Shown here: positions 6,927 to 48,110 of the stretch, one piece after another
Numbering within the stretch: the stretch's first letter is position 1
Layout of the letters: each line of letters opens with the position of its first letter
Origin: Chara braunii
Lineage: Eukaryota > Plantae > Charophyceae
Length of the DNA stretch: 64,000 nucleotides
Assembly: GCA_003427395.1 (NCBI GenBank)
Contig: BFEA01000003.1
Span: 3,940,440 to 4,004,439, forward strand
Direction of reading: 5' to 3'
Position numbers and translations under genes: made by a program
The notes under the pieces: model-generated
Told to the model about the DNA's origin: nothing
What the model saw: the letters and a program-made list of their open reading frames with translations, nothing else
Database searches by the model: none

Positions 6927-6994
6927 AAACAAGAAAAAAATATAGGTTGTGCGTGATGTGTACGTAGCAGCCTTTGCGGACTCAAGCCAGCCGG

Positions 6995-9193: not shown

Positions 9194-9268
<75 letters not shown>

Positions 9269-11463: not shown

Positions 11464-11466
11464 AAG

Positions 11467-11484
11467 TGGCGCCGTTGCCGGGGA
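11467..11484 (+). promoter_or_regulatory. primer binding site, tRNA-Asp type
   Basis: TGGCGCCGTTGCCGGGGA, 3 nt after the LTR end. It is complementary to the plant tRNA-Asp(GTC) 3' end ...TCCCCGGCAACGGCGCCA, the same PBS as Athila elements. Confidence 0.9.
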
Positions 11485-11958
11485 TGAGCATTTCTCCCGC
11501 GGCCGCAGCCGGCTCAGAAATTTGGTATAAGGGAGGACCAACGTGACAGGCAGCGGTGGGGCGAGTTTGGGGTATTTTCCATCATTCAGCATCGAGCACT
11601 TCAGCGCTCGACTTCAAGACGGTCGTCCTCGGCGTATCTGTTTTTTTCACCAGGTTCTGTTTTTCCTACAGGGTCATCGTCTGTTCCGGGGTTTTTTTTG
11701 GTGGTCGCGGTCCTTCTCGAGCCGCATCGGCAAGGGTTGTATTGGGGGCTTGGGTTTGGGCTTGTCGGGTGTGAGGGGCTTTGCGGTGTCGGGCTTCTCC
11801 TTGGTTTTTTTTTGCAGGTCCGCTCCTGCCCGCTTGCGACCTCGGCTCCCGCTCCCGGCCTCCGATGGGTAAAACAGGTCAGTTTTTCTTGTGTGAGTGC
11901 ATGATTTCGAGAGTGTTTATTTCTAAAAATTTAAAAATTAAGGGGGTGCATAGTTTGC

Positions 11959-12456
11959 TTGAGGGGTCTGATGAGGGGGAAAAACAACAAAAGGGTGGGA
12001 AGAAGAACCGTCCGAGAGAATAGTACGAGGGGGTCGGCTCAAGGGGGAGAGAGAGAGAGGTCGAGGGGAAGAGAGGAGAGAAGAGTCCGAGAGGGTCCGG
12101 GGGAGCTATCCATTTGGGACCCAAGGGGGTCGCCGAATATTCTTGACCCGCACGGGTTGTGGAGGGCGCCTACCCAAGGGCAAACTCACACACGAGAGGG
12201 AGTGTCTAGAAAGGAGTTCGGGCCTTCGGTCCTCGACCCGCAAGGGTTGTGGACGGGTTCCGTGCGAGAACCTACTCCCGCGAGGGGGCGGGATTCTCAA
12301 ATAGAGCCAGTTCGGTACTTGGTGGTGAGGGGAGTGGCACTCCGGGTATCGGGACAAGGGGGAGAGATAGACTCACCTACCGTTGTGAGAGAGGGGGTTA
12401 TAGAAGAGGAGGATACTTGGGGACCCATGGACGGGGGATCGGAGTCCGAGTCCTAG
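11959..12456 (+). CDS. possible leader ORF with internal repeats (WDPRGS / LDPHGLW / LDPQGLW)
   Basis: 165-aa ORF (first ATG 11971) in the purine-rich leader with a thrice-repeated motif. No recognisable homology. Confidence 0.3.
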   Translation: MRGLMRGKNNKRVGRRTVRENSTRGSAQGGERERSRGREERRVREGPGELSIWDPRGSPNILDPHGLWRAPTQGQTHTREGVSRKEFGPSVLDPQGLWTGSVREPTPARGRDSQIEPVRYLVVRGVALRVSGQGGEIDSPTVVREGVIEEEDTWGPMDGGSESES

Positions 12457-13098
12457 GTGGACCGGCGTCAAGCTGATTTCTTGGACTCGGACCTGGGGGA
12501 CTATTGGGATTATGGAAACGATTACTGAAGACCACAAGGTACGTATGCTTGTCTACTCAACCTGAGGGTCTCTTCTTAAAGCTCCGCTTTCCCGCCCCAC
12601 TTTTTTTTGACTCCCCGATTTGAATTCCTGTGATTCCAATGGAGAGGAGAGGCATCCGGAGGCGGAAAAGGGAGAAGGGAACGTTGTGCGAAGAGTTCAC
12701 GATGAGGAGAGTGGGAGGGAGTAGATAGGCTAGTGATCTCTGATAAATAGGTGGATCTTGTCCTGGGACCCAGGTAATTCCACGCTTGAGGTGGGCCGAG
12801 TAGAGGCGTGGTGCCGGATAGGCTAACTTAGGACTAGGGGTCTGTTCAGTGAGGGACATAGGACCCGGGTGTGCGACTTCGGTCCGACTTCCGGGGAGGG
12901 GGTTGCCACCCTTCCTCGGGGATAACCTGTGTCCGCGGCTAGTCTCTATGACGGGAGTGGGAAGGGGTCTCTCAGGGGGGGAGGACAGGAAGGTAGCCGA
13001 GTGAGCTCACAGGCTTCTTCTCCTTGCGGAATAGAAGTGGTCTATCGAGTGGCCAAAAAGAAACAGAAACTTAGAGATTTTTCTTTTGATTATATTGC

Positions 13099-13449
13099 AT
13101 GAGTTTGGAAGCCGTTCCAGAATGGATTAGCGTGTACACGTACAAGGGTGTGGACGTGTGGTGTTACACCTTTCGACTATGGACGGGTGATTTTGACGTG
13201 GGTGTCTACGGCGAAGAAGGGCTGGATCAAGGAGAGGATTTCCTTCATGGATGGGAGGAGGCGGTAGGCCACTCGCGCGGTGCAAGGGGGGAGTTGAGGG
13301 GTTACGGGTTTAAATACTTTTACTCTTTGGGTTACCGAACCTGCCCTAGAGGGGGGCGTCCGGCGCCGGTAGTTCCGGACGCTTATCTCGACGGATCGGA
13401 TGGGTTGAAGGTGCTAGTAGGGATCATAGAGAGATTGGCGGAGCGGTGA
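13099..13449 (+). CDS. accessory ORF H1 (family A), unknown function
   Basis: Intact 116-aa ATG ORF. Paralog of H2: DVWCYTFRLWT...EEG...WEEA.GH...YFYSLG.RT..RGGR..P.+PD.+LDGSDG. Confidence 0.75.
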   Translation: MSLEAVPEWISVYTYKGVDVWCYTFRLWTGDFDVGVYGEEGLDQGEDFLHGWEEAVGHSRGARGELRGYGFKYFYSLGYRTCPRGGRPAPVVPDAYLDGSDGLKVLVGIIERLAER

Positions 13450-13453
13450 CTCC

Positions 13454-13819
13454 ATGAGCTTGAGGGCTCTAGAGTTTGAACCTGCGGGGATTAGTGTAGG
13501 TGATCGAGGCGGAATAGACGTGTGCTGCTATACTTTTTATTGGTGGACTGACCATTTCGACATAGCCTTGTACGTAGAAGAAGGTGGGGATAGGGAGGCC
13601 GAATACTTGGATAGCTGGGAGGAAGCGGCCGGTCACGCGCAGCTCGAGAGGGAACTGCTAGGGGCTTGCAAGATACATTACTTCTACTCGTTGGGGTGTA
13701 GGACATATTCACGAGGGGGTAGGCATATTCCTACTATTCCGGACACCTTCCTAGACGGTTCGGACGGGTGGAGAGCGCTTGTTCAAATCATAGAGGAGAT
13801 AGTCCAAGGGGATGGTTAG
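13454..13819 (+). CDS. accessory ORF H2 (family A), unknown function
   Basis: Intact 121-aa ORF starting 4 nt after the H1 stop; aligns end-to-end with H1. Confidence 0.75.
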   Translation: MSLRALEFEPAGISVGDRGGIDVCCYTFYWWTDHFDIALYVEEGGDREAEYLDSWEEAAGHAQLERELLGACKIHYFYSLGCRTYSRGGRHIPTIPDTFLDGSDGWRALVQIIEEIVQGDG

Positions 13820-14553
13820 GATCGTAGAAGGCACTGAAGAAGAAGGGGTTCGAATAGAGAAAGCGGATTTAAGCAAGGAAAGGGAGTGCTTTAGTGTCCC
13901 TTTGGACCACTGCACTGAGAGATATGTGGCCGGACGCGAAAGAGGGTTAGAGCTAGAAAATGGGGTTTTTCTTTGGGCTCGGTTCGCGGTAGGCACTTGG
14001 GAAGGGGACAGGTGATCCCGGAATAGGCCCCAGTGCGGTAAGAGACCGAGACGAACGGTGGTCCGAGCAGAAGGGACTGTCTATCCAAGTAAGGAGGCCT
14101 GGGTGTATTACATCACCCACTTGGTCCTGGGTTGGTACCGTGCAGATCATTGGGAGGCTCGAGTGGGGCCAATTCTCAGGCAGATCTTTGAGGCGGAGTC
14201 CCTTCGACACCATCCACCCATTGAGGTGGGTAACTTACGCCCGAGACGAGGAATACCCTCGCGCCACAGGGTGCGTCCGGGCTATATTCCCATCTTTCGT
14301 TTTTCGGAGGATCGGCGGTAAGGAGGAGAGGTACGAGAGAGTTGTGTGATCCATAGTATGGGAAAGAGGGTGGCAGCTCTCTGCTAGGTCGCTCCATTGG
14401 TACTACACCTATTGCGTGGATAGCCCGGTACCATACGGGATCAAGGCCTGTAGGATTCGTGCGGGGATCTTTAGGGAATCAGCCCGGGACCGCGAGAGTG
14501 AAAGAGACTATGGATACCAAAGAGTCTTCGGGGTACCGCAGAGAATGTTCTAA
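13812..14553 (+). pseudogene. accessory ORF H3 (family B), interrupted
   Basis: ATG overlaps the H2 stop. Track ORFs 13812 and 14058 are in the same frame. After a frameshift it reads RSLHWYYTYCVDSPVP...GIFRE...YQRVFG, matching H4/H5, and ends TAA at 14551-14553. Confidence 0.65.
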
Positions 14554-14557
14554 ATGA

Positions 14558-15277
14558 ATGGTGTTCCATGATAGAGGGTAGAGACGCTTCTTAGAGTCCT
14601 CCTTAGAGGGCCATGAGACCCTTAGACTGATCCCTAGCAACGGGGAAGTCCCCGATTGGGAGAGGGTAGAAGGGGGAAGGTCCACGGTCAGTGGGGAATT
14701 CGTGTGGGTAGAGTCCAAAGAGGTCGAAAGTCGAGGGCTTGAGAGGAGTCTCGAAGTAACTGCGGTTATCTTCGTGGGCCCGGAGGCTTGGGCGAAGATT
14801 ATAGTACCCCTAGTTCTGGGACAAGGGGGTGGGCTGGATAGGTTGTTGCGGGAAGCAAGAGGAGTACGGGAGGAATGGATGAGTAGGGCTCGAGAGCGAT
14901 TTACGTTTGTGGCTATAGAGAAGGAGAGGTTCGCAGGGGATGGAGAGCTCCCTAGAGCATGCTATCCGTTGACCGTGAGGGTTCCATCCTTCTTGTTCCC
15001 GGGAGCAAACGAGGGAAAGATAGTAAGGTTTCTTGAGAGGGGTAGGTGTTTGGGACTACCCTTCAGGGCCCTGTGGACACTGTACACCCATTGCATCGAT
15101 CAGGGTGCCCCGCCACGTAGGAAGCTTTGGGGAATTTTTAGGAGATTGGGTTCTCTGGAAAAGCCCTGCGCTCTCTCTCCTGAAAATTATTGTCAGTGGG
15201 TCTTTAAGACCACGTTAGTAGATGGTGAGGTTCACACTCAGCGAGAACGGGGTGATACAGTCGACAGAGGCCGGTGA
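14558..15277 (+). pseudogene. accessory ORF H4 (family B)
   Basis: ATG 14558 is in frame with ORF 14702-15277, with one TAG at codon 8. Motifs: VWVES...LEVTAVIFVGPEAW...LVLG...LWTLYTHCIDQGAPPR. Confidence 0.7.
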
Positions 15278-15950
15278 CGCCGAGAAGGTTTGGGTTCCAG
15301 GGGACCCAAGAGTGACGCCCTACTGGATGAGTGTGGAGAAGGGGGAGGTCATTCGGGAAGGTGCGTACGTGTGGGTCAGGGCTCGCCAGCTCACCTGGAA
15401 GGAAGGGGTGCAGAGAGGGGGCCCGCCTGACCTTGGCCGATTCTTAGAGATTCGGGCTACGATCTTCCTCGGCGAGGAGGCGTGGACCGAAGTTTGGAGG
15501 GGCTTGGTAACCGGGCAACTAACGCATTTTGCGTACCGAGAGTCCGTGAGGTTAGTGGCAAACAACCTAGTGTTGGCTGACAACGAAGAAGGGACTTTCG
15601 AGTCTTGGACACTAGTGTCCTTCGCTGAGCCCGGTGAGGTCCCGCGTGCGTCAGAGATCCTTCACGCAAACTTTTCCAAATTCTTGACAGACTCATTTTT
15701 TAGAGACCCAAAGGCGCGGGTAGTGGAAGTGCTTAGGGCGGCTCGGGAGTCCGGGGTGCGGGCTAGGGGTTTGTATTGGTTCTACACACGGTGCGTGGAC
15801 GCGGGGGTGCCCCCAAGAGGGGAGTTGTCGGCTATATTCGAGAGGCTTAGAGAATTCGAAGGAATTAGGGCACACGTGGCTGACATCCCGTACGCCCGCC
15901 TATTCGGGGAAGAACAAGTGGCCAACCGAAAGGGTTTTGAGGGTCGATGA
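15222..15950 (+). CDS. accessory ORF H5 (family B), intact 242 aa
   Basis: VWVRA...LEIRATIFLGEEAW...LVTG...LYWFYTRCVDAGVPPRGELSAIFERL; paralog of H3/H4. Confidence 0.75.
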   Translation: MVRFTLSENGVIQSTEAGDAEKVWVPGDPRVTPYWMSVEKGEVIREGAYVWVRARQLTWKEGVQRGGPPDLGRFLEIRATIFLGEEAWTEVWRGLVTGQLTHFAYRESVRLVANNLVLADNEEGTFESWTLVSFAEPGEVPRASEILHANFSKFLTDSFFRDPKARVVEVLRAARESGVRARGLYWFYTRCVDAGVPPRGELSAIFERLREFEGIRAHVADIPYARLFGEEQVANRKGFEGR

Positions 15951-15963
15951 TAAGGAGGGTACC

Positions 15964-16699
15964 ATGATCTCTCTGGGCCTCGATAGCCCCCATAGAGGAT
16001 ACCGGGGAAATTGTCCAAGTCACCCTACCTAGAGCCAGGTTGGAAACGCAGACAAGGATTCTCTTAAGAGAAGAGGGGCAGATCCGCCGCAGGAGGGCTT
16101 TCGTACGTTTTGCGGTGAGTAGTGAGGGAGGAATAGTGATCGGGAAGGCCCAAATATTCCTCTCTAAGGAAGGGTACATAGAGATAGCATGTTGCCTGCA
16201 GACTTGGGAAGACCCTCTCTCGGACTCACGAGCTGTGAGGGGCCAGCTAGAGGAACTCGTGAGGGACGTGAGGCCTCACGAAGAGGGGCTAGTAGAATAC
16301 CGAGTGACCTACGGAGGGTGGGAGGAGATCCCACGATTCACCTCCAATGAGCCAGTGGGGGTCCCTCGTTTCATCTTCAAGCGGATCTATCCCTCCGAAG
16401 ACGTCGTAAGGGAGATAGGAAGGAGGGTGTCGATTCTAAGCTAGTTCCGGTTTACGGGGTCGGACCTGCACACCTTGCTGATGTGGTGCTTTCGGGATCC
16501 CTACAGGGATGATTGGTCGACTCTAGAAGACCTAGGGTATGCCTTTGAAGGCTGGGGCCGGGACGCGAGGGAAGCTAAGATATCGTGGAGGTACTTAGGA
16601 AGGCTCTGCGAAGGGGAGTTGGAGGGGTTAGACCCGTCGGCTCTCATTCGAGTCGCGATTGCCTGCCGCCGACGAAAGCTAGGGGATGACCGAGCCTGA
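15964..16699 (+). pseudogene. accessory ORF H6 (family C)
   Basis: ATG 15964, an early frameshift, then ORFs 16040-16444 and 16475-16699 in one frame. VRFAVSSEGG...KAQIFLS...EDPL matches H9. Confidence 0.65.
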
Positions 16700-16871
16700 C
16701 CTTGGCGAGCTCGTAGGGTTGGAGAGAGTAAGAGAAGAAATCCTTCGGATCCTCACTCTATGTTGGGAGGAAGAGAGAAGGGCTAGGCCTGGGTCCTTGG
16801 CTAGGATCAAGCTACTGGAGACGACTACGATTGCTATCATCGACGAGTTAAATATAGATCTTCTCGCGTAG
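16686..16871 (+). CDS. accessory ORF H7, 61 aa
   Basis: ATG overlaps the H6 stop and the ORF exactly fills the space before H8. Confidence 0.5.
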   Translation: MTEPDLGELVGLERVREEILRILTLCWEEERRARPGSLARIKLLETTTIAIIDELNIDLLA

Positions 16872-16880
16872 TAAGAGGTT

Positions 16881-17357
16881 ATGAGAGCTTCATTCTTCTC
16901 CGATAGGATTCGTTGGGAATTAGAGACCTGCGAGGAGGGTAGCGAAGTCAGGGTTGAGGGGAGTGCGGAACTTAACCCGGATCTGGGAGAGGGTCGAGTG
17001 ATCCGTGCCGAAAAGGAATTTCAAGTGGAAGTCTGACGGCTGGCCTTGTGGAAAAGGAGGAGCTGGACCACACTAGCTAGCTTTTCAGTCCGCATTCGAG
17101 GCATTAGTGGGGAGAGATTCCGGAGGACTTGGAGGGAGCCACTGCTGGAAGTGGAGAGAAGGTTCGAAGAGAACACCAGATATCTAGGCACCCTGCTAGC
17201 TTCTAGGATACACCTTGTGGAGACCCGATTCTGGGATAGGACGGGAGAATACGAGGAGGTTTTGCACCAAGTATTGCGCGAAGGAGGAGAAATCTAACAA
17301 ACTAGGTGTGAGGACTCGCTGGTAGAGGTTTCCGCAAGGTTGGCCGACGTGAGGTAA
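16881..17357 (+). pseudogene. accessory ORF H8
   Basis: ATG 16881 is in frame with ORF 17046-17297, with internal stops. It ends TAA at 17355-17357, 8 nt before the next ATG. Confidence 0.5.
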
Positions 17358-17365
17358 GGCTTCAG

Positions 17366-19658
17366 ATGATTAGGTACGACAGGGGGGACCCTATTGGTAC
17401 CATAGAAAGGGCTTGGAAATCGGGAGGAAGGTATGGAGTGACTCTCCCAAAAATTAGAGGGGAAGGAGAAGTGTCTACCGAGTTTTTCGAAATCTACGGG
17501 CAGGAGACTGTGGTCAGGTTCTCAGTAGTGTCTGAGGGAGGCAACTGCACTAGAAAGGCTGAGATCTTTTTGTCCCCCGACGATCGGCTAATCTTCGCGA
17601 CTGGATTAGCAGAAGGAAAGGATCCCCTAGGGATCGCCCGAAGAGCCCTAGATCGGTTGAGGAGATGAAGAGGGGGTAGTACCGGGAAGCGCGTGATTGA
17701 TAGAGCAGAGTACTGAGGGAGGTCAAAAGTTCCAAGGGCAGCTCACGGGAGAACTTGGGAGGTCCCAACCTGGGCCTACCGGCTACTCTACGTTGACGAC
17801 GCGACCGTAAGGAGAGTCAGGATTAGGGGACAACTGATTGAAAAGTTCCCGTTGGGCGAAGAAGGGGGACACGAGTTGTTCCCCCGGTGCTGGGAATCAC
17901 GAGAGGATACTGACTTTGAGTGGTCGGCTCTCGTGGGGGAATTCATAAAACCCCTATTTCGAGGAGAACCCGGAGAGGTGGATAGAGCATTGATCCAAAG
18001 GTGCGCTCAGGAAGGGATAAGGGAGATCTTCGACCTAGAAATAGCTAACCTAGCCTTGGTCGCTTGTGAAGAAAAGCGCGTGAGAGACTCTTGGTGGACA
18101 GTAACTAGCGAGGAGTCGGAGGAAGATAGTGCTAGCGAGAAATCGAGTGAGGAGAAGGAGGACTCAGAGGAGGGAGACGACTCGGAAGATAGCACAGACA
18201 ATAGAGAGGGAGACGATTCGGAAGATAACACAGACAATAGTGAGGGAGGCGACGAGAGATTACCGATAGGGTGCATGCAAAGTGAAGTGGAGGCTGGTTT
18301 CTCTCGTCCGCTGGAAACCGCTGAAAGAAGGGAGGTAGTAAAGGGCCCCGAGTTGGGGGCTAGGCTAAGTAGGGTAGTGGAAGAAATGACAGAAGGGATC
18401 GAATCAATGGGTAGGGCCGAGAGGGGCCCGGAAACGGCTCTAGGAGAAAGACAGGCCCCGGAGGGGCCGAGACCTAGCACGGAGGTACGGATGCACAGGG
18501 ATGTGGGGCTGCGGGCGTCGGTAAGCGAAGGGATCGCCGAAGCCTCGAGGGGCGTTCCAGTAGAGTCCCGGTGGGCGGACCTGGTGGACACGGAAGCAAG
18601 GATAGGGGAAGCTCCCGAATTTCCTTGAGGCAGGCCGGGGTATCGACCACCTAGGGGAGATGAAGAAGACGGTCCGGATAGTGGGGACTTAAGAGAAGGG
18701 AGGTCGGCGGAGGCCGGCGGCAGGCCACGAAGATGGGTCGAAAGGAACCCGGAGATCCTTTCCGGTGAAAGACAAGTTTCGGCGGAACAAAGAGTTAGCG
18801 TGGAGATGCGAATGCCAGTGAGAGAGGGGGCGGTCGAGGCCTCGAGGGGACTTCCTATAGAGTCTCGGTGGGCGGATCTGCCGGACGCAAGAATGGGAGA
18901 AGCACTAGAGTTTCCGAGGGATAGGGTAGGGTACAGGCCACCCAGGAGGGAAGAGGAAGGAGGACCGAATAAAAGGGACCTTAGAGACGAGAGGTCGGCA
19001 GAGGCTGGCGGTAGGCCACGGAGATGGGTCGAGAGGGAATTAGACACTGCATGGGTTCTCGAGGAAGCAACGGGGAGGAGTCAAGGGGTAGATGCCTGGA
19101 GAAGCTTTAGGGGGCAAGACCATGCTCAGTGGGAGACGGAGTGGTCGAATGAGAGAGGTCGCTACGGAAGATCCCTGGGGACCACCAAGACCCCGGCCGC
19201 GGGTTGAGGAGTCGGACCCCTCGTGGTACAAGCCGTACGATCCGGTAATTGACGGACCCATGGAAGGACCCTATTTTCATCGGTACGATGATCGAAGAGT
19301 TCCCTACTACGATGTCAATCTGAACCTAGAGGCGCTTTTCTTTGATGGGCGTGATGTAACCGGGTTCGTCGAAAAATGGAAGAGTTATGCTTACCGTAAG
19401 AAGTTCTCCGAAAAAGAATGGATAGACCATTTCATCCAGCACTCGGACCCGGAATTAGACCCTGCAATAAGGGCTATCTACCTGGCGGATGGTCGGTGGA
19501 GGACATTCAAAAGAGGTCTTCTACGGACCTTTGCGTGTGATGACTTAATCCCCACCATAGACGGCTTGCGTCGTGTCACAAGGGGGGATCGGGAAAGTTT
19601 GGTGGCCTTCACCCGAAGGTTTAAACGCTTGTCTCAAGCCCTGGTGGATAGAGGGATG
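17366..19658 (+). pseudogene. gag: family-C domain (H9) + acidic linker + duplicated ~100-aa repeat + gag N-terminal/capsid region, truncated by nested element
   Basis: ORFs 17366, 17852 and 18800 share one frame; then a frameshift leads to FDGRDVTGFVEKWKSYA...WIDHF...ESLVAFTRRFKRL, homologous to nested gag FKGCGITEYIEKWELHA...ESVRVFGKRFRKV. Confidence 0.75.
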
Positions 19659-20408
19659 AACACAGTCAAATTTCGGCCTTGACAACCCCGCAGTATTCTC
19701 CTCGGATCAAGAACATCGAACCTGCCCTCGGAGAAGGGGCAAATACATCCTCGGCCCGTCTGTACTTCTCCAGATTATTAAGAACGAAACTGTTGCATAG
19801 TGGTGAAGCGAAAGAGAGAACCGTGAGGGAGGGAGAAAAAAAACAGAGAGATAGAGAGAGGTACAAATAGAGAGGGAAAAAGGAAACGATGATTAAATAG
19901 AAAAGGAAAGAGACAACAGAAAAAGAGAGAGAAAGAGTACATCGAGAGAAAGAGAGAGAGAGGGGCGGCATATCATAAATAAAGTTGACAGAGAAAACTC
20001 CTTGTTGTGGATCTCTCTGAATTGCGAGTTGACTGTTGGAACTCACTGTAAGGTGAACTTGTGGAACCTCTTGCTGACTGCAAAAACTCGTTGTTGTGCA
20101 AACTCGTCGCATTACTATTTGATTACTGAAACTCGTTGCTGATTGAAACTTGTCGTTTTATCAGTTCACTGTCGAAACTCTGGGTTGCACGAATTTGCAG
20201 CACTATCTGTTGACTGTTGAAACTCTTTGTCGCAGGAAGTCGCTAAATTACAAAAAGAAAGAAAAGAAAAATAGGTAGCGTGGCGGTACGCCTTCAACCT
20301 TGGCCGCTGCTGGTCGCCGAGGACCTCGGAAGTGGGCGAGGCGAGTCACAGGCGTCGTGGCCCCTGGCCTCAACGAACAGTAGGTGCCCCTCCCCGGGTT
20401 TCCTCACA
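19659..20408 (+). repeat. 3' remnant of nested 5' LTR
   Basis: About 750 bp, highly similar to 38483-39230, joined directly to host gag with no TG start. Confidence 0.9.
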
Positions 20409-20412
20409 ACTT

Positions 20413-20430
20413 TGGAGCCGTTGCCAGGGA
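20413..20430 (+). promoter_or_regulatory. primer binding site, tRNA-Asp type (2 mismatches)
   Basis: TGGAGCCGTTGCCAGGGA, 4 nt after the LTR end ...CCTCACA. Confidence 0.85.
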
Positions 20431-22333
20431 GGGGAACAGCACCCCCAAGGCCTTGGCCTTCCCCAATCAAACGGGGGTGCGCTGTCTGATTAAGCCAGGT
20501 GGTAGCTAGCTTAATTAGTTTGATTAGTAGATTTTTCTAAATTAGTTTTTTTTAAATATTTTCTGATCCGCACGTTTTCGCGTAAACTTCGCAGGGAGCA
20601 AAGTTCATCCTCTCAACGAGGCGAGCATTTTGGTATGTTTTTTGAAAAATTCTAACGGTGAAAAACAGAGATATTGATTTCTTTTGTGTCTTTCTAATTT
20701 TAATTTTGGAAATAACAAATTTTGGTTTTTATTATTTTTTTGCAGATAGAAGCAAAACCTGGCCTACCCTTCCCAGACCAAAGTTGGTCCTTATATTTTT
20801 CCCGACATTTTGGGACATTGGTCGGGAAAAACGGACGCTGTTTGAATTAACAGCGAGAACGAACAGATAAGAAAAGAAAATATAAATGAAAGGATTATTT
20901 GAGTTTTTAATTTTTTTGAAATTTCATTTAAAATTAAATCAAAAAAAAATAAACAAAAGTAATCCGATAGGATTACTCTTTGAACTTATAAGAATACAGA
21001 AAAAAAAATTCTACTATAATCAAGGGTTTGTGGTGAGCGCGTGAGCGCGCGCAAGAACCCAAGACCCTAATTAGAGAAACCCTAGTGAGGCGAAACCCTA
21101 ATTAGGGGCTTAGGGATCACTTACAAACCCGAAAATTATAGTCAAAGGATATAAGTGCGGAAACCGAAAATCTTGCATCTCTCCAAAATTTTGAATATTT
21201 TATTGATAAAAATTAGTTAAAACTGATAAAAATAGTTATTTTTCTCTTATAAATTGTCTGTAATTATTTTCGCAGCATTCTCGGACAGCGGATTTGGGGA
21301 CAATTGTCTCGAACCCCATCCCCACGGGGGAAGGGAAATTGCTATCAAAAATTTCCACTTTTCTATTTTTCTTGAATTATTCTCGATTTAATTATTAAAA
21401 ATCTTTAAAAATCCAGCAAAAATCTGAAAATTATTTTAGGAATATTACTTATATTTTATTTCACCAGTGGTGACTTCGTAGGCCTTCGGCCGAGCCCGAT
21501 CCCAACGGGGGGAGGCGAAGCGCTGCCAAAATTTTTGGAAAATTATAACAATTCATTTGGTTCTCAAGAAATCATTAGATTTTGCACAGAGATACATATA
21601 GAGGATACTAATATATGTAATACAAGACAGGGAATATATCTTGGTGGAATATAATTTATCTGAATTAAAAATAGGAAAATAGGGGAAAATTCCCTAACTA
21701 AGGTAAGAAAAGGGGAATTGAAGTGACGAAAGGCCCAGTTCGTTCCATGACCTCTTCTTGAGGGGTAGCTACCATCACGAAGATTTTCCGATAATTAAAA
21801 TTATTTAGATATAAATTAAAATAAATAGTAAGGCACTGCTGGGAGAAGAAATGTACTTGCCAACACATTTTCTAGGGGTAACCTAGCGTACTCCTAGATC
21901 TTGGAGTAGGGCCAGTGAGTTCCTCAAGGTTAAAAGTAATTTTAAAGTAATTAAAATTATTAAAATCCCGTAAAAATATAAAAGTGGCAAAACAAATAAA
22001 AGAAAAAGGGCTAAAGGTTTAAAAATTTGCTACTTAATTAGGAGGTGACCTCCGTACCACAAAGGGTCGGCCAGAGGTGCCGCAGACTGGGTTCCCTCGA
22101 ATAGAGCACACGCTTTATATTCGAGGGAACTCGGATATCGAACTTTTTGAGGCCATTCGGGGCCGGTTTTTGGTTCCATTGTGTCTTTGGACATTCTAGG
22201 GAAAGGTTAGGGCCGTATTGGCAGCGTTTAATCGGGGCTCCCAACGAAGGGAGGCGAAGCGCAGCCGAATTTTTTAAGGATTTTGTGTCATTTCTCGCTC
22301 ATTAGCTGCCTAACCTTTCGAGTATTCAGTCGG

Positions 22334-23350
22334 ATGTGGCCCCCAGCGCCGATAGAGATCTACGAGGCTACCCGCGCTTGGGACATAGAGCCTCCGGAGC
22401 TCATAGAGGGAGACTTAGTCGAGTTCACAATCCCTGACAGAGCTACCGATCGTATTGACGGACAGTTTGGGTGGAGATCCGTCGTCCTATCGCCTAACAC
22501 GTGGCTTTGGACACATAGGGAGGTCAGGCCAGGACAGGAGAGGGGCCTTGTGAGAGGCTACCTGTACCTAGGACCGCACGTGGCCAAGGAGGCCGCTCTG
22601 AGTTTGGTGACCACGGGCGAGAGTGACGCGATCGGCGTAGCCCTACGGTGCCTGCGGGACAAGGTCACCACGTTTCGGGCTGACGACGCGCACGACGCTT
22701 TGACATTATGCCATGGACGGCTTCCCCTCAGTATTGGTAGCGAGTTGGTGATAGCTCGGGACTGATCTTTCCCGTATGGCACCACGTGTCTGAGGGCGGT
22801 GATCCCCGGTTTCATCGTAGACTCCGTCTTTGGGGGTATAGGTGGGTTAGTCGAGGCCTACTTGGCATTCCGAGATCTGGAGACCCTCGCCAAGGGGTAT
22901 AGGGACCTAGACTACCTGTACTACTCCCTTGTGATTGGAGGACTTCATTGGGGAGACGGGAGGGTTCAGCTTGTTGAGCTGATTCGCTCGGTAGACGACG
23001 AGTGGCCCCAGGCTTTGTGCGTTTGGGATTGGCTGGACCGCGAGCTCCGAGCGGGTCCTGAGTACGTGACCTGCATCGGGAGGCTTTTCTCTGACGATTG
23101 GGGTGGCTGGTGGAGCGAGGACGCTGGACAGCCTCTGATGTACAGCCACCATCTGACACGGTACTATCAGGTTCTAGGCCAGGCCCCATATCGCGTCGAG
23201 GACGAGTTCGACGACGAGGGGTGGGAGCGTGAGGACGACGAGGAGGCCTGGGAGCCAGACTGGATTGATTCGGAGAGTGAGACCGACGAGGAGGAGATCG
23301 ATACCACCGACGCCCACTTCCCGAGGATAGGGGTCGCCGTCCGGACCTAG
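22334..23350 (+). pseudogene. accessory ORF N1 (family B-like) with acidic tail
   Basis: ORFs 22283-22765 and 22799-23350 are in the same frame, separated by one TGA. Motifs: EFTIP..WRS...WLWT...YLYLGP...LVTTG...IPGFIVDSVFGG...QLVELIR. Confidence 0.7.
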
Positions 23351-23429
23351 GAGGCAGACACGGACGAGACGTGAGTGGTGACTGAGAGGATGTCGTGATT
23401 GGTGTCGACAGGTAGCAGCAAGCGGTTCG

Positions 23430-24310
23430 ATGGTAGAGCAGGCTGATAGGGTAGAGCTCGAGATCGGCAGTGCCAGATGGCCTAAACCTCCTGAGGTAGT
23501 GGAGCCTGACGTGCTGGAGTTTGATTTGCCGGTTAGGAGCGTAGCTGAGTCCGGGCTTCACTCCGCCTGGAGATCGACGCGATTTGGACCAGATGTGCAC
23601 TTGTGGTCATATGCGATTGAGACGTATCAGCCAGATGCTCAGCGTTGGCGAGCGCCGGGGACAACGATCCTCGAGGTTATAGGGCATATCCATTACTCTC
23701 GCTCAATGAGAGCCACGATTTTCTTTGAGGGTCTGGTGCATGGGTTCTGGTGCTGTGAGCAGGAGGCTAGAGCGATTCTATCTGAACAGGCGGATAACAT
23801 CCGGGCTGCTAGTGAGGTTTTTCACGACCCGATTAGGAAGGTGAGGATGACCCTCCGGATAGGGGGGGCTTTTGCTTTTCCCTCGGTGTGACTGCGAGTG
23901 AGACTTCCTTAGTTCGTAGTGGAGGAGCTCTGGGGACTGACTCACATTGCCAAGACTTAGACAGACTGAGGAGGGGCTTGGCAGATCGCGATTGGATCTC
24001 GTACGCTCAATTCATTGGGGGACCGTTCACAGGCGAGAGAGGTATTCAGCTCGTAGAGTTTATACGAGCGCTAGCGCCTTCTGGAGAGCAGGATTCCTCG
24101 TACACATATCAGCCCTTGGAGTTCTGGCTAGCTTTAGAGAGAGAGGCCCTGAGACCGGTTGAGTATCTGGAGGGTCTAGGCGCATTACTGAGTGAGACGC
24201 GCGAGGACAGGCTTGCTCCCCTTATTCCGTCTTGGGAGATAGAGGCACATTATCAGCAGGGACACCCAGAGGGAGTGGATCTTGGGTGGTACGCCGAGGA
24301 TAGAGAGTGA
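23430..24310 (+). pseudogene. accessory ORF N2 (family B-like)
   Basis: EFDLPVR..WRS...HLWSY, a frameshift near 23890, then IGG..GERGIQLVEFIR...LERE...EY, aligning with N1. An acidic tail continues in frame to ~24490. Confidence 0.7.
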
Positions 24311-24490
24311 GAGACCGCAAGTGATATAGAGCCTTGGGGAGAGCAGGACCAGGGCTGGGGAGACCTGGTGATAGAGGATCGCCAGGAGCCGGTAGGAGAG
24401 GTAGCACCGCAGGAGGACGGCTGGGGGCATCTAGCTCAGGCCGAGGGACTGGAGGCCATCCCTTGGGGACGAGGGGATGAGGACGAGGAT

Positions 24491-24859
24491 ATGCTAGATG
24501 TGAGAGACGATTAGAGACTAGGCATATCCGCGTGTAGCATAGATAGGAGATTAGTGGTGAGACAGTTACCAGGCGCGAGAGATAGCTTCAGAAAATACGG
24601 GTTATGTGACGCGACGACAGAGATGGCGGATAGAGACACGTTGAGAGTGACGCTTTCCGTACGACAAGATAGGACGGAGGGCTGGGAAGATGAAGTGATG
24701 GATAATGTCGCACAGCGAATCAGGCTCATGACCGAGCATGCCTTAGCGTTACGAAGAGGTCAGAGATACATTGAGTACACTATCTGCTTCCATGGAGCTG
24801 ATGGGAGGGTGCACAACACTTACTCGACTGTATTGAGCTTGAGTGGTAGGATGGCCTGA
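24491..24859 (+). pseudogene. accessory ORF N3 (possibly family E)
   Basis: ATG 24491 is in frame with ORF 24554-24859, with one TAG. Weak resemblance to N5/N6. Confidence 0.5.
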
Positions 24860-24902
24860 GGAGCTGGTAGGATCGAGAGGTTGAGAGCACAGGCGTAAGG
24901 TA

Positions 24903-25652
24903 ATGAGGAGCGACTCAAGCGCATGGTGGGCGTATATCCTGTTGAGAGACTCAAACTCCTACAAAGTGAGGAGACTAGTCGGGCCTAGGGAGACTGCGCT
25001 CGGATTCGACATACCTCTTCCTGTGAGATTGGTGGATAGCGACAGGGTACCACTCGAGTATGTGGGAACGTGGATAGAGGAAAGAGTATTTCTCTGGACG
25101 ATAGTTGTAGCGGTTAGAGAACTGAGACGTGAGAGGCGGGAGGAACTGATAGGACATCTTATCTTTGATCGAGTGCGAGAGGTTGGAGTAGGACTGACAC
25201 TAGTCGGGATTGGAAGGAGCCTGTGGAGATATGAAGCTTTGGCGAAAGCTCTTCTGACTAGAAAAGCGAGACTGATAGTAGGAGACAATCAACCGCAGGT
25301 GCGTATCGTGATCAGGCCCCCGGAGCAGGATCTTCATCCTGTACAGGGCTGGAGATGGGCCCTTCCTCCATTCGTGATTGACCAAGTATACGGAGGGGTT
25401 AGGAGCCTAACGCGAGCGGTCCACCATACGCACTTGGCTCTTGGATCGGGGTTGGCACCGCGGTTCAAGGAGGCTTATTTCGCTGTTAGTTTGCGGTGGA
25501 GACGCTTTGATGACGAAGAGCTAAGAAATCTAATAGACATGTCCTGCTGGGTAGACTGTCTGAGACCGGTTGACTTAGTCGAATACTATCGGAGACGCGT
25601 GGAGGAGAAGTACGTTGGACTAGAAGACTTGAGGAATTTATTCAGGGAGTAG
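24903..25652 (+). CDS. accessory ORF N4 (family B-like), intact 249 aa
   Basis: GFDIPLPVR...VFLWTI...LIGHL...LPPFVIDQVYGG...LRPVD aligns with N1/N2. Confidence 0.75.
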   Translation: MRSDSSAWWAYILLRDSNSYKVRRLVGPRETALGFDIPLPVRLVDSDRVPLEYVGTWIEERVFLWTIVVAVRELRRERREELIGHLIFDRVREVGVGLTLVGIGRSLWRYEALAKALLTRKARLIVGDNQPQVRIVIRPPEQDLHPVQGWRWALPPFVIDQVYGGVRSLTRAVHHTHLALGSGLAPRFKEAYFAVSLRWRRFDDEELRNLIDMSCWVDCLRPVDLVEYYRRRVEEKYVGLEDLRNLFRE

Positions 25653-25657
25653 GAGAT

Positions 25658-25939
25658 ATGCCGGGTCGTAGATCAACTGGGATCGAGGTAAGCAGGCAGT
25701 TAGTGAATGAGGGGTTCACGGTTACGGTACTACTCAGAGCGAGCATAGAGGACAACCTGACTGAGCAGGAAAGTATTCTACAAGCCAGATAATTTATTCG
25801 GGAATACAGACCGGGCGTTCTCGAATGCGTAACCTTTCAGACCAAGATATAGTACGAGGTAATGGTGTGGTCAGCAGGGTACCTACGCGCTGAGTTGTTC
25901 TTTGATGAGACGGTAGCAAAAGCTAGGAGTAGAATATGA
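25658..25939 (+). pseudogene. accessory ORF N5 (family E)
   Basis: ATG 5 nt after the N4 stop. Manual translation after a frameshift gives SRQLVNEGFTVTVLLRASIEDNL...YEVMVWSAGYLRAELFFDETVAKARSRI*; paralog of N6. Confidence 0.6.
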
Positions 25940-25948
25940 GCCCCGGAC

Positions 25949-26381
25949 ATGACAGAGCACGAGCAACAACTGTATCGATACAGACCTAGAGCCTCGTATT
26001 CGCTCCGGTGGGACCACAGGGGATCCGACCCCTGGAGGAGCGTGAGTGAGAGGAACCCCCGAGTAGCTACTCGAGGGATTGAGACGAGGAGTCTCTCTTC
26101 TCGACGACGTCTTCCCTACGCTCGGGTTGTCTCTAGGCAATTAGCGTGTGACAACGAGACCCTACAGATTCTCTTGAGGGTGAGCATAGAAGAAGAACTG
26201 TCAGACCGCGAGTTCAAAGAACTTGCAGAAGATGTTATATGGGAGTAGAGAGTTGGAGCGCTGAGGGAGTTGACGATACAGAACCTGGGTAGTATATGAG
26301 GTGATCGTATGCGTTAAAGGAAGAGTGCGCTTGGAGATAATTCAGGACGAGACACCCGCAGAGGCTCGAAGCAGTATGTGA
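25949..26381 (+). pseudogene. accessory ORF N6 (family E) with N-terminal gag-derived peptide
   Basis: SRQLACDNETLQILLRVSIEEEL...YEVIVCVKGRVRLEIIQDETPAEARSSM*. The N-terminal SYSLRWDHRGSDPWRSVSERNPR matches gag at ~29935-30000. Confidence 0.65.
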
Positions 26382-26617
26382 TAGAAGTTCAGGGTAAGAA
26401 AAGTGATGGATCGCAGAGGATGGAAGATCTAGAAGGAAGGAAAAAGACAGTAGAAGAGTGTATTATTAAGCCAATGGCAGAACGGGTTAAGGAACTCTCC
26501 CTCAAGATCCAGGACTGCGGACCTAAGAAGGATAGGAGTGAGCTGCACGGAATAGAAGGTGCGACGAAGGCCCTGAGAAGGCTTTTTATAAAGGACAAAT
26601 ATTTCTTTAGGAGGTAG
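26378..26617 (+). CDS. accessory ORF N7, charged helical
   Basis: 79-aa ORF (ATG ~26420) filling the gap between N6 and N8; may extend through a stop. Confidence 0.45.
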   Translation: MIEVQGKKSDGSQRMEDLEGRKKTVEECIIKPMAERVKELSLKIQDCGPKKDRSELHGIEGATKALRRLFIKDKYFFRR

Positions 26618-26767
26618 AGGCTAGAATTTCTAGAGAGTGTCAAGAGGAGAAGTCTAGGGAACGAAGGGTCACTTGAGTCGACAGGAAGGAAAAAGGAGTT
26701 GATAGAGACTGCAACGTCAGGAGAGAAGAAGGATGTTGCTGAGGGTGACGAAGAATGAGGAGGGAGG

Positions 26768-27256
26768 ATGAGCAGCGATAGATGTTTTATGCGAGTTATA
26801 GGAAAAATGGAAGGGTCAACCGCTTGTGTTAGAATACAATTGGAGCAACAAAAGAGGCTCACAGTGATCGAGGAAGTGGAAAGTACTAGAGAAGCAGTTC
26901 AAAAGGCGCGGGTGATTGGACTCTGGGTAGGAGAAGGGAGTGCACAACTGATCTATTATTCGTTGCACTTGTCCCCCTACGATAGAGTGACTCTAAGTAG
27001 AGAGTGGCGCGAGTCTCCGGGGAAAATTCTAAAGAGTGAAGCGGAAGTGTCAGGGGAGTTTGCAAAGGCTATAGTAGAAAGTTCGGTTCTAAGAATCCTG
27101 AAAGCACACGACCAGTACCGGAGTGAGTTTCTTTGGACCCTAGCCGAGATTGAAGATTTTGGGGACATAGAAGATTTTGAAACATTTTTTCGGTACTTGG
27201 AGGAAGCCACGGACCGGATTCTGTTGGCCTTAGCTCTAATCGCAGCAGACTTTTAG
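26768..27256 (+). CDS. accessory ORF N8, intact 162 aa
   Basis: ATG-initiated, intact, globular-looking composition, within the array. Confidence 0.65.
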   Translation: MSSDRCFMRVIGKMEGSTACVRIQLEQQKRLTVIEEVESTREAVQKARVIGLWVGEGSAQLIYYSLHLSPYDRVTLSREWRESPGKILKSEAEVSGEFAKAIVESSVLRILKAHDQYRSEFLWTLAEIEDFGDIEDFETFFRYLEEATDRILLALALIAADF

Positions 27257-27274
27257 ATACCTCATGGATAAGGG

Positions 27275-27772
27275 ATGCCATTACCAGAGGCGGAGCTAGC
27301 GAGGACGAGAAGAAGATTTGGGGTTTGGGGTGGTCCTTACGAACCTGAACACGAGAAAGTACTTGGTGAATTGAGCGCTTTGGGCAAACGAGAGATCTTC
27401 CCGTATGAAGTGATTAAGTATCAAGTACAGAACAGTGGAGTCGAGCGCAATCAATACTATATTATGACCGTTCGGTTTCATGACTTAGAGGTGTACAACG
27501 TTGGTATATACCTGCCTAAAGAAAGTGCAGAATTTTGCATATACGGAAGGACTTGGAGGAGAGTTGCGTGGGTATTAAGAGAAGAGGAAAAGAGGTTAAA
27601 AAGTTTGGGAAAGATTGTGGAGGTCTGCGGCGACATCACTATTTTTGATGGTCTGGCTAGGCTGCCTGTTCCATGTCAAGGGCTAGAGCAAAACAAATGG
27701 GAGACTGTTGTTGGACTCTCTCTAGCGGTCAGGATCGAGGACAAGTTCAGGAAGACCACTAAGGATGAATAG
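27275..27772 (+). CDS. accessory ORF N9 (family F), intact 165 aa
   Basis: LSALGKREIFPYEV..Y.+..SG.E....YI+T+.F...EVY.V.IYLP...GL.R.PVP.Q...E.VVGL.L; paralog of N10. Confidence 0.78.
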   Translation: MPLPEAELARTRRRFGVWGGPYEPEHEKVLGELSALGKREIFPYEVIKYQVQNSGVERNQYYIMTVRFHDLEVYNVGIYLPKESAEFCIYGRTWRRVAWVLREEEKRLKSLGKIVEVCGDITIFDGLARLPVPCQGLEQNKWETVVGLSLAVRIEDKFRKTTKDE

Positions 27773-27781
27773 CATGAGGGA

Positions 27782-28276
27782 ATGAGTAAAGATACGACTA
27801 TCTCTGAGAGGGAATTGCAGTCGAGAAGAGAGAGGTTCCTTGCAGGCAACAGACCTTCGGATGAGGTGTTAGCAGAGACTTGCGAGATGTTGAGTTCCTT
27901 AGGGCGAAGAGAGGTTATTCCGTACGAGGTGGTGACCTATGAATTAGTGGACAGCGGTTGGGAGCAGATACGTCTTTACATTATCACCATTTGGTTCATA
28001 GCCGTTGAGGTGTATGATGTTAGGATTTACCTTCCAGTGGAACGACAAGGCGATTTGATTTACAGTCGGTGCTGGGAGCGCGCAGAAGAAGTCGTCGAGA
28101 GTGAGCGGGATAAAATTCTAGCACTAGGTAAGGAGGTAATCTGGGACACCCGGATAACGCTCTTTCAGGGGTTGCCCAGACCTCCTGTACCACGTCAGGT
28201 GGTTCGAGGGAGGAGCAATGAGGCAGTGGTTGGCTTAGCGCTTCGATACTTTAAGTTTGATGGTCGTAGGCGGTGA
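27782..28276 (+). CDS. accessory ORF N10 (family F), intact 164 aa
   Basis: Starts 9 nt after the N9 stop and aligns end-to-end with N9. Confidence 0.78.
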   Translation: MSKDTTISERELQSRRERFLAGNRPSDEVLAETCEMLSSLGRREVIPYEVVTYELVDSGWEQIRLYIITIWFIAVEVYDVRIYLPVERQGDLIYSRCWERAEEVVESERDKILALGKEVIWDTRITLFQGLPRPPVPRQVVRGRSNEAVVGLALRYFKFDGRRR

Positions 28277-28584
28277 TTACCTGCTCGCAGAAGCTCACGT
28301 CGCACGCGTTAAGTGATCTAGCGCGGAGGGCATCGGTCGACCTACGAGAGAGTTTGCGTTCTTGTGCACCGGAAGAGTTGATGAGGATCGCGACAGAGAA
28401 TTGTAGGAGAGTGAGGATATCAGAGTCCGGAGTCATAGAGATTAGAAGAGGTGTTCGTTGCATAGAAGAGCAGGAGGGAGAACTTTATTTTGACTCAGGG
28501 ATTTTAGGTATCGAGGGTGAGCACGAGATACGAGACGAGACTGGGAGACTTGTTGCGATCCTGAGAGCGGTCGCAAATGAGTGA
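28260..28584 (+). pseudogene. accessory ORF N11
   Basis: ATG 28260 overlaps the N10 end; track ORF 28273-28584 gives the C-terminal part. Confidence 0.45.
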
Positions 28585-28592
28585 CTGACTCT

Positions 28593-28713
28593 TTCATTGG
28601 TCCGGGCTGCGGATTCTTTCATAGGTCCAGGCTGCGGATTCATTCATAGATCCTGGCTGCGGATTCTTTCATAGGTCCGGGTTGCGGACTCATTCATAGG
28701 TCCAGGCTGTCGG
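28593..28713 (+). repeat. 25-bp tandem repeat (~5 copies) immediately upstream of nested gag
   Basis: Unit ttcataggtcc(a/g)ggctgcggattc(t/a) at 28593, 28618, 28643, 28668 and 28693. Confidence 0.9.
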
Positions 28714-28751
28714 TGCTGACCCACTAAATCGGAAGAGGGAAATCCGATACA

Positions 28752-31700: not shown

Positions 31701-31878
31701 CCTGCTTACAGAAGAAGAAGGTCGGATAGTCGAAGTCGAGGATTTAGGCACTCGTGTCCGTGTGGGAGGAAACTCTTATCCTAAGACAGAAAACGAGGAG
31801 TTTGGAGGAATGATTTTTGTGTCTTTTTTAAGGGCGCAGCCCCCTACGGGGGACGACCAAAAAGACACAAGACAGTAG
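28752..31878 (+). pseudogene. gag: nested element gag-protease (stops/frameshifts)
   Basis: Capsid-like region, RD/RE-rich repeats, knuckle CIYCRGDDHLKRDY (last Cys lost), and aspartic protease AVIDNGSE...LLLGRTWL. Confidence 0.88.
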
Positions 31879-34800: not shown

Positions 34801-34883
34801 TGTTTAGGCCAAGGGCGACTCCTACTTCTGTACCGACGCCAAGGTCGCAGATGAAAAGGGACCGTCAAGACGGTTCGAGGTAG
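31824..34883 (+). pseudogene. pol: nested element pol: RT-RNase H-integrase
   Basis: RT: NRWFFLRK..DLQKVN..DLFLGY..MGWTNG..FLDD. RH: TDAG..E..ADGLSR. IN: HDG..GH..CETC with D..D(RGTEF)..E(RGH) and a GPY-like WMGLYRV. Several stops. Confidence 0.95.
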
Positions 34884-44500: not shown

Positions 44501-44632
44501 GAGACCTCCAAACAAGGAGCCTCTTCTCGACCCCCAAAGAAAGGGTATAAGGTTCGAAAAACTGCCCTNCCACGAAAAGGGGGAGACCTCCAAACAAGGA
44601 GCCTCTTCTCGACCCCCAAAGAAAGGGTATAA
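41529..44632 (+). pseudogene. pol: host element pol: RT-RNase H-integrase (IN core partly deleted)
   Basis: 827-aa ORF with FLDD RT, TDAG..E..D..ADGLSR RNase H and HHCC. The IN core lacks ~55 aa including the second Asp. C-terminal RWMGPYKV lies in 44174-44632. Confidence 0.95.
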
Positions 44633-47924: not shown

Positions 47925-48015
<91 letters not shown>

Positions 48016-48037
48016 NNNNNNNNNNNNNNNNNNNNNN

Positions 48038-48110
<73 letters not shown>

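Follow-up and report, generated by a model that had tools for sequence, protein, structure and literature searches.

The window analysed here is a stretch of 64,000 nucleotides (nt) from the charophyte Chara braunii (contig BFEA01000003.1, positions 3,940,440 to 4,004,439 of the forward strand). It contains two large retrotransposons, element H of ∼23.7 kb and element N of at least 19.6 kb, with N nested inside the gag gene of H and the left long terminal repeat (LTR) of N largely lost. Both are Ty3/gypsy elements by structure, with TG...CA LTRs, a primer-binding site (PBS) as well as the domain order protease, reverse transcriptase (RT), RNase H and integrase after gag (Pfam). Each places a 5–6 kb block of small sense-strand open reading frames (ORFs), nine in H and eleven in N, between the PBS and gag. 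An original prediction made from the sequence alone had put both blocks where they are listed below, the end of the H block now being refined to ∼18250. We are almost certain that the blocks are a selected accessory cassette present throughout this lineage in Chara. In the list, family A denotes a group of paralogous proteins of ∼240 amino acids (aa).

6995..11463, plus strand: 5' LTR of H (TG...CA), 93-95% match to 45184-50258; left flank CCGG
8380, plus strand: TATA-like box in the 5' LTR of H
11467..11484, plus strand: PBS of H, starting 3 nt past the 5' LTR end
13099-∼18250, plus strand: H cassette, nine ORFs between PBS and gag
13099-13449 and 13454-13819, plus strand: H1 (116 aa) and H2 (121 aa), intact paralogue pair, 50% identical in aa
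13812-14553, plus strand: H3, family A, ∼240 aa, broken
14558-15277, plus strand: H4, family A, ∼240 aa, one stop
15222-15950, plus strand: H5, family A, ∼240 aa, intact
15964-16699, plus strand: H6, family A, ∼240 aa, broken
16686-16871, plus strand: H7, 61 aa, without paralogue, assigned by openness and position only
16881-17357, plus strand: H8, two stops, without paralogue, 74-75% to pieces of CBR_g19747 and CBR_g39819
17366..18250, plus strand: H9, family A with acidic tail, two stops in this copy
18275..19656, plus strand: 5' part of H gag, interrupted at the N junction; gene models P0068 and P0085 match
19657..20409, plus strand: remnant of the left LTR of N, 94% to 38483-39231, with a TATA-like box at ∼19974; no matching target duplication
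20413, plus strand: PBS-like site of N
22334-28584, plus strand: N cassette, eleven ORFs between PBS-like site and gag
22334-23350, plus strand: N1, family A with acidic tail, one stop
23430-24514, plus strand: N2, family A with acidic tail, broken
24623-24859, plus strand: N3, between N2 and N4
24903-25652, plus strand: N4, family A, intact
25658..27256, plus strand: N5 and N6 (broken paralogues), N7 (one stop) and N8 (26768-27256, intact, without paralogue)
27275-27772 and 27782-28276, plus strand: N9 and N10, intact paralogue pair, 41% identical in aa
28270-28584, plus strand: N11
28752..34883, plus strand: N gag, protease, RT, RNase H and integrase, broken (Pfam Asp_protease_2, RVT_1, RT_RNaseH, Integrase_H2C2, rve)
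38483..39230, plus strand: right part of the 3' LTR of N, preceded by 84-bp repeats at 37465-38252
39231..44632, plus strand: 3' part of H gag, protease, RT, RNase H and integrase (pol at 40297-44632)
45184..50258, plus strand: 3' LTR of H; right flank CTGG

As had been predicted, the LTRs of the two elements are unrelated, with no H-LTR/N-LTR match in a self-BLAST, and their Pol regions are colinear yet diverged (66% in nt; RT 70% in aa). A size of ∼23 kb was right for H, while for N only the lower bound given above is available.

The assigned frames tile 96% of the H block and 94% of the N block. Stops number 15 in their 3,626 codons (0.4%), whereas the other five frames have 4.8%, a contrast that is partly circular because the frames were chosen for being open. 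The share of the plus strand lying in stop-free stretches of at least 100 codons is 0.74 in H and 0.82 in N, values as high as which occurred in 0 of 300 Markov-4 simulations (maxima 0.44 and 0.27), and in the control regions (H 5' leader, H 3' LTR and N 3' region) this coverage was not above that of their simulations. In this copy, stops or frameshifts interrupt about half of the ORFs, and the cassette decays at a rate like that of N gag (4 stops in 662 codons). Four stops (14347, 14579, 26246 and, in gag, 29355) occur among the 40 best-supported of the 2,761 differences to other copies; there the contigs read a sense codon at their full depth, which identifies these stops as private decay. 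The number of about ten accessory genes per element was thus borne out by the nine and eleven ORFs, but the genes are not unrelated to one another, since 14 of the 20 fall into a few paralogue groups. Family A accounts for eight (H3, H4, H5, H6, H9, N1, N2 and N4), of which H9, N1 and N2 have acidic tails, and the other groups are the pairs H1/H2, N9/N10 and N5/N6. Pairwise z scores are 9-29 among H3, H4 and H5, 11-15 for N1/N2 and 8.6 for N5/N6. Separately, N6 (25949-26100) has 30 aa at 63% in common with an internal stretch of N Gag (29853-30000), a hint that cassette genes took pieces from gag.

Selection on the ORFs was assessed with locus L001 (1,261 bp), the one locus obtained when metagenome contigs were scanned with H5 and another copy of H4-H5, which is 74.6% identical to the window with no gap over 1,259 bp and carries one stop in H5. 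The ratio of nonsynonymous to synonymous substitution rates (dN/dS) is 0.14 for H4 (191 codons) and 0.08 for H5 (209 codons), compared with 1.35-2.33 in shifted frames, and the synonymous share of the differences is 0.62 against 0.30, with 0 of 500 nulls as high. Identities at the three codon positions are 0.66/0.66/0.38 for H1/H2 and 0.51/0.62/0.32 for N9/N10, with synonymous sites saturated; off-frame controls are flat, the low-identity position tracking the sense frame. Relative to the gene models of other copies, substitutions pooled over 797 codons are more conservative than neutral (0 of 300 simulations), although taken singly those of H1-P0015 and H4-P0121 are not, and the same holds for one of three RT controls. 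These data show that several cassette ORFs, namely H4, H5 and the paralogue pairs, are under purifying selection. They uphold both the view that the blocks are real, selected coding sequence and the observation that paralogue pairs conserve protein while their DNA has diverged.

Of the best 120 among the 315 proteins that match the RT-RNase H region of H, Chara braunii supplies 113 (up to 90% identical) and the window itself one; the remaining six, at 37-45%, come from other sources. Automatic, spliced gene models on other scaffolds join cassette ORFs to gag or pol of the same family. CBR_g19376 has an H1 piece joined to an H-family RT, CBR_g3241 has H9 as one continuous stretch (74% over 245 aa) joined to gag or pol, CBR_g19747 and CBR_g72645 carry H8 and H4, respectively, each linked to gag or pol, CBR_g39819 holds H4, H8, the H9 tail, gag and protease in that order, and CBR_g28531, whose N-terminus is 60% to N5, runs on into N-family gag/pol. 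This linkage speaks against the blocks being a separate insertion. DNA contigs of one sample cover 30 of 30 bins of 12000-31900, with a summed depth in run X1 of 337-1039 over the H block and 407 over H gag. Contigs identical to the window reach a depth of only ∼10-16, and 6,298 of 8,024 placed records are <95% alike; contig depth is not a copy number and is taken only as a sign of many diverged copies. Part of N1 (22624-23287) has an X1 depth of 6,779 compared with 150-400 in most of the N block, and also the highest N-block RNA depth in run X6; it seems to be common to a far more abundant sequence. Contig joints connect the N LTR end to the H cassette (20410 to 13730 and 20410 to 17426, with 25-30 other letters between) and an H2-like end back to an H2-like start (13775 to 13454). 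They may represent N-family insertions in other H copies and a variable number of H1/H2-type genes.

A quick RT tree of 83 of 119 matches (six rows of it from sources other than Chara) unites the H family, the N family and a family of two rows in a single branch (SH-aLRT 99); next to it stand two larger Chara branches at ∼50% RT identity. One of these, a third clade with RT ∼50% identical to that of H, has family-A pieces at the N-terminus of its gene models, ahead of gag/pol. The H profile matches P0076 (iE 2e-6) and the N profile P0026 (iE 1e-4), and P0026 and P0076 match each other by BLAST (5e-15; 135 proteins). Conversely, a profile built from nine third-clade pieces alone matches only H3, N1, N2 and N4 among 642 six-frame tiles of the window (iE 0.03-0.9; best reversed control 5.8). 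The piece occurs in 8 of the 34 tree rows of the third clade and in 0 of 14 rows of the other, gene models capturing family-A pieces only by chance. Since family A also precedes gag/pol in the third clade, the cassette is lineage-wide in Chara, as had been proposed. P0076 and P0104 are 94% alike in RT and 29% alike in their family-A pieces, so the third clade also holds divergent paralogues. A 16-row family-A tree places paralogues of one element family together (3 changes, 7.4 when shuffled, 0 of 200), although support for the H clade is weak (70/87). Paralogues are separated by ∼1 change per site, whereas RTs within a family differ by ∼0.1. The grouping by element together with these long distances points to separate tandem expansions and fast divergence, and weakly supports a history in which family A would have been present in the common ancestor of the three RT clades and amplified separately in each.

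The claim that the proteins are unlike any recognised ones also stands. No Pfam family matched any cassette ORF, and no family, homologue outside Chara or fold was found for the cassette proteins in large searches and fold comparisons that predated the deep alignment. None of these results points to the anti-silencing, targeting or movement factors that the original prediction had suggested, and those roles stay conjectural. The four credible matches among five profile matches are pieces of elements (P0121-P0123 from Chara braunii, and P0125). Window ORFs show no clear transmembrane segment (best 19-aa hydropathy ≤1.8), only H4 and N1 being borderline.

Both elements are depleted of ATG on the sense strand from the TATA-like box to gag, with an observed/expected ratio of 0.61 in each.

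8410..18274, plus strand: ATG-poor zone of H, TATA-like box to Gag ATG, 56 ATG against 92.0 expected (P 3.6e-5)
20000..28751, plus strand: ATG-poor zone of N, TATA-like box to gag, 80 ATG against 131.7 expected (P 8e-7)

In H, the density is 22 per kb before the TATA-like box and 4-7 per kb after it, and the zone ends at gag. ATG is the first or second most depleted of the 64 trinucleotides in the H block (36 observed against 60.4 expected), the N block (75 against 97.3) and also the N leader (5 against 22.4 or, for the leader taken alone within the zone, 30.3); gag, pol, the neighbouring gypsy element and the antisense strand show no such depletion. Internal Met residues number 19 in the cassettes (0.54 per 100 codons) and 79 in gag/pol (2.29; p 3e-10), with corresponding counts of 7/1,209 and 81/3,177 in other copies. 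Met has the lowest residue ratio (0.25), with Lys at 0.42 and Asn at 0.47, while Ile is not depleted (1.18). Out-of-frame ATGs are also scarce in the cassettes, with 61 compared with 86 in synonymous shuffles (0/500; H 0/500, N 13/500), whereas gag/pol have 125 compared with 112. At twelve of the 19 stop-start junctions the spacing falls between -15 and +20 nt (p 7e-8 given the frame; 0.002 for any frame). The combination of sense-strand ATG depletion from TATA-like box to gag with tight junctions resembles what plant pararetroviruses show where they use leaky scanning and reinitiation, and is new here. A Shine-Dalgarno reading of the cassette starts failed its test.

We propose that transcription starts in the 5' LTR and gives one long element RNA, on which scanning ribosomes would have to cross 9–10 kb to reach each ORF and gag. 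Under such scanning, selection would have cleared AUGs from within the ORFs and brought the start of each ORF up to the end of the one before. Judged by these sequence features, the RNA of the H and N families is probably read as a polycistronic message by scanning and reinitiation. The cassette proteins may in turn act as counter-defence factors against host silencing or RNA surveillance. They are soluble, element-restricted, tandemly amplified and fast-diverging, a combination that conflict with the host fits best, VANC of VANDAL transposons being a precedent and tandem multigene arrays in large viruses a parallel; a counter-defence role is a tentative suggestion. As a whole, the reading we prefer, of tandem arrays of 9–11 ORFs that are likely translated by leaky scanning and reinitiation and likely serve counter-defence, is somewhat favoured.

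Further features of the two elements bear on their classification and history. TGG-led PBS sites lie 3–4 nt past the LTR ends in both, and the two sites are alike; that of H is presumably of the tRNA-Asp type, and no tRNA genes occur in the 64-kb window. If so, it would match the tRNA-Asp PBS of Athila. The region 18275-19204 is the N-terminal part of H Gag and not an accessory ORF, and the 5' part of H Gag has a weak Retrotrans_gag match (E 0.009, below the cut-off). At the N junction ∼140 codons of H gag are absent by comparison with P0085, and the left LTR of N is truncated there too, so that one deletion likely removed both. LTR-LTR divergence (Kimura two-parameter) is 0.043-0.061 for H and 0.057 for N. 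The target flanks of H, CCGG and CTGG, agree at 3 of 4 positions, the 5-bp flanks differ, and the left end of N is lost; the flanks at 6991-6994 (CCGG), 50259-50262 (CTGG) and 39231-39234 (ATGT) are compatible with NCGN, a 4-bp target, once CpG decay is allowed for. Tandem repeats comprise the 84-bp units at 37465-38252 before the N 3' LTR match, 162-bp units in the H LTRs (48970-49490), 25-bp units between N11 and gag (28590-28709) and 36-bp units in the H9 acidic tail (18170-18253). An AT-rich insertion of ∼526 bp in H gag (39642-40167) has a long imperfect inverted repeat (68%) and is MITE-like, and ∼880 bp of the H 3' LTR (46210-47089) are absent from the 5' LTR through insertion or deletion. 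Outside the elements lie a complex tandem array (1896-2720; periods of 30, 63, 93 and 123 bp) and, on the minus strand at 56908-62557, a further Ty3/gypsy element, unrelated to H and N, which contains protease, RT, RNase H, integrase and SH3_Tf2-1, has normal ATG content and is probably a chromovirus (weak Chromo match, E 0.007, below the cut-off).

The comparisons with known systems, here and below, draw on excerpts of the cited papers. Ogre, TatII, Athila and Retand elements share with H and N the order Gag-PR-RT-RH-INT (PR, protease; RH, RNase H; INT, integrase), a size of up to ∼24 kb, LTRs of up to ∼5 kb, tandem repeats and a sense extra ORF before gag (PMC6317226, PMC7264820), the last being recorded in 21% of Ogre and 23% of TatII elements in REXdb (PMC6317226). 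Ogre has one or two extra ORFs (PMC6431247), whereas H and N have 9–11, in paralogue arrays. The earlier statement that known elements carry one or two therefore holds for Ogre, but the contrast is slightly weakened because the REXdb survey counted only ORFs of ≥250 codons (PMC6317226), a length that only H9, N1 and N2 would reach. Neither Plant-mobile, Transposase_28 nor Athila ORF1 Pfam domains occur in H or N, and the additional RNase H of Tat, Ogre and Retand is absent, only RT_RNaseH families matching and ∼125 aa separating RNase H from the integrase zinc domain in H. Athila has a 5-bp target duplication and an extra ORF after pol, whereas the duplication in H and N is apparently 4 bp and the N 3' region shows no excess of sense ORFs. 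An NCGN target is the reported preference of the moss element Phygy, a non-chromovirus, and fits CCGG of H, as well as CTGG and ATGT given CpG decay, but Phygy, as described, is 7.7–10 kb long, mostly tRNA-Trp primed and without extra ORFs, compared with nine in the ∼23.7 kb of H. Pfam shows no Chromo match at the integrase ends of H or N.

The closest parallels in expression strategy come from plant pararetroviruses. Tungro- and badnaviruses have cleared AUGs from the accessory ORFs upstream of their polyprotein, which allows leaky scanning, and caulimoviruses reinitiate across short overlaps (PMC5902531). Like H and N, Tungrovirus, Badnavirus and Caulimovirus have accessory ORFs ahead of a Gag/RT-type polyprotein, with few or no internal AUGs and joined by short overlaps or spacers, but only two ORFs and ∼900 nt are scanned in the cases described there (PMC5902531), compared with 9–11 ORFs and 9–10 kb in H and N, where AUG is depleted and not absent. 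Pararetroviruses also differ from H and N in that the latter possess LTRs and integrase, while neither a movement protein nor TAV was detected in them. Burro, Terminons, foamy-like fish endogenous retroviruses (PMC6431247) and bdelloid LTR elements with ORF3s (PMC5408684) are, like H and N, large and equipped with several accessory coding units. As described, these have recognisable domains and lie mostly within a polyprotein or after pol, or belong to non-LTR elements, whereas those of H and N are small, separate, paralogous ORFs before gag with no recognisable domain. Env-like accessory proteins are encoded after pol and are transmembrane, in contrast to the H and N ORFs, which all precede gag and have no clear transmembrane segment. 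VANC of the VANDAL/Hiun Mutator transposons, an anti-silencing protein and model for element-specific action, is likewise a divergent transposon-encoded accessory protein (PMC6446971); the likeness is an analogy only, VANC being the single gene of a DNA transposon with no sequence link to the cassette proteins found. No description of the H/N architecture came up in the literature searches made, although the Chara genome paper or Repbase may describe these elements. That paper reportedly mentions a very abundant Ty3/gypsy-like repeat family.

Several observations weigh against the reading we prefer. The 56 ATGs remaining in H and 80 in N exceed the ∼10-13 expected from post-insertion decay, so that pure leaky scanning to gag cannot be efficient, and the third-clade family-A pieces are not Met-poor (61/1,883, 3.2%), so that the ATG signature is not lineage-wide. 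RNA is scant. With 6 and 12 in 100 of runs X5 and X6 sampled, respectively, X5 gave 104 placed reads, with nearly none on the cassettes, and X6 gave 865, with a cassette depth mostly <1.5 on both strands, 798 of the 865 being <95% alike and hence mostly from diverged copies; no joint linking cassette ORFs was seen in X6 at this low depth. The predicted polycistronic character is favoured by ATG depletion and tight junctions but only weakly supported by RNA. Direct H-N profile comparisons were not significant, and the family-A link between H and N rests on the third-clade bridge and on H3-N1, the sole stand-out among 132 cross pairs (1 of 20,000 shuffles); a link between H1/H2 and N9/N10 is no more than suggestive (10 of 200 shuffles). 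The DNA-level dN/dS covers 2 of the 20 ORFs and one copy pair, and H7, N3, N7, N8 and N11 are backed by openness, Met content and depth alone. Most of the N block has a lower X1 depth (152-397) than N gag (505-751), and the gene models, being automatic and spliced, establish linkage and not whole cassettes. Two predicted structures are unreliable (pLDDT 40 and 48), and neither sequence nor structure names a target for counter-defence.

That the genes are real is common to most alternatives. The main functional rival holds that family A is a Gag-associated, matrix-like particle or trafficking domain, duplicated off the N-terminus of Gag, that would contribute to particle assembly or movement within Chara's giant cells. 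The H9 frame is indeed stop-free from 17717 to 18625, continuing into the N-terminal part of Gag, N6 has the 63% match to N Gag noted above, and third-clade models have family A ahead of gag/pol. However, in N a distance of 3–6 kb separates the family-A genes from gag and these genes terminate in stops, the end of the ATG depletion near 18275 suggests a start of its own for Gag, and no cassette protein matches a capsid, matrix or movement protein family. A divergence of ∼1 change per site between paralogues, with RTs at only ∼0.1, is moreover unusual for structural proteins, and we regard this explanation as unlikely. The genes could instead be expressed, in retroviral style, from spliced or internally promoted single-gene mRNAs, their packing reflecting a packaging limit. 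The dozens of remaining ATGs, and some starts that by eye follow AG or pyrimidine runs, would suit such mRNAs, which would give no need to clear internal and out-of-frame ATGs from every ORF while gag and pol keep theirs. The sharp shift in ATG density at the TATA-like box, and the lack of a cassette splice joint among 15 listed of 130 joints at low RNA depth, also make single-gene mRNAs unlikely.

It is improbable that the cassette mainly sets Gag/Pol dosage, with one or more of its proteins acting as a TAV-like transactivator for reinitiation after long ORFs. Caulimoviruses depend on such help where long ORFs follow one another closely (PMC5902531) and the junctions here are short, but no ORF has a Pfam match, a single factor would leave three to five paralogues per element unexplained, and AUG removal is the strategy of genera without TAV (PMC5902531). 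Least credible by far is that the two copies carry, in these blocks, neutral cargo, captured host genes or a separate insertion. The broken state of about half of the ORFs and the scant RNA would fit, but gag is broken at a similar rate, dN/dS is 0.08-0.14, the ORFs are linked to gag or pol on other scaffolds, and the four credible profile matches are element pieces. This explanation is largely refuted for H4, H5, H1/H2 and N9/N10 and may apply only to the five orphan ORFs. A bolder version of the reading we prefer, which we consider rather unlikely, ascribes to the elements a complex-virus strategy, in which a fast-evolving multigene counter-defence array with a new fold would expand and contract by tandem duplication, and scanning with element-assisted reinitiation would translate it together with gag from one RNA over ∼10 ORFs and 9–10 kb. 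If true, none of the cases compared, as far as the excerpted sources describe them, would come near it in the length of polycistronic translation by scanning ribosomes.

By the common view, LTR retrotransposons manage with little more than gag and pol, and the few extra ORFs that they have are of obscure origin. From the ATG-depleted zone of 9–10 kb it can be predicted, sharply and testably, that plant-type ribosomes carry out polycistronic translation over a long range, which the sources excerpted here describe for pararetroviruses across two or a few ORFs. Such arrays would escape surveys with a 250-codon cut-off, and they may have been overlooked elsewhere. In Chara, strong selection maintains a multigene cassette across a whole lineage, made up of a repeatedly duplicated new protein family, and with this cassette the contribution of accessory genes to a non-infectious element can be tested directly.

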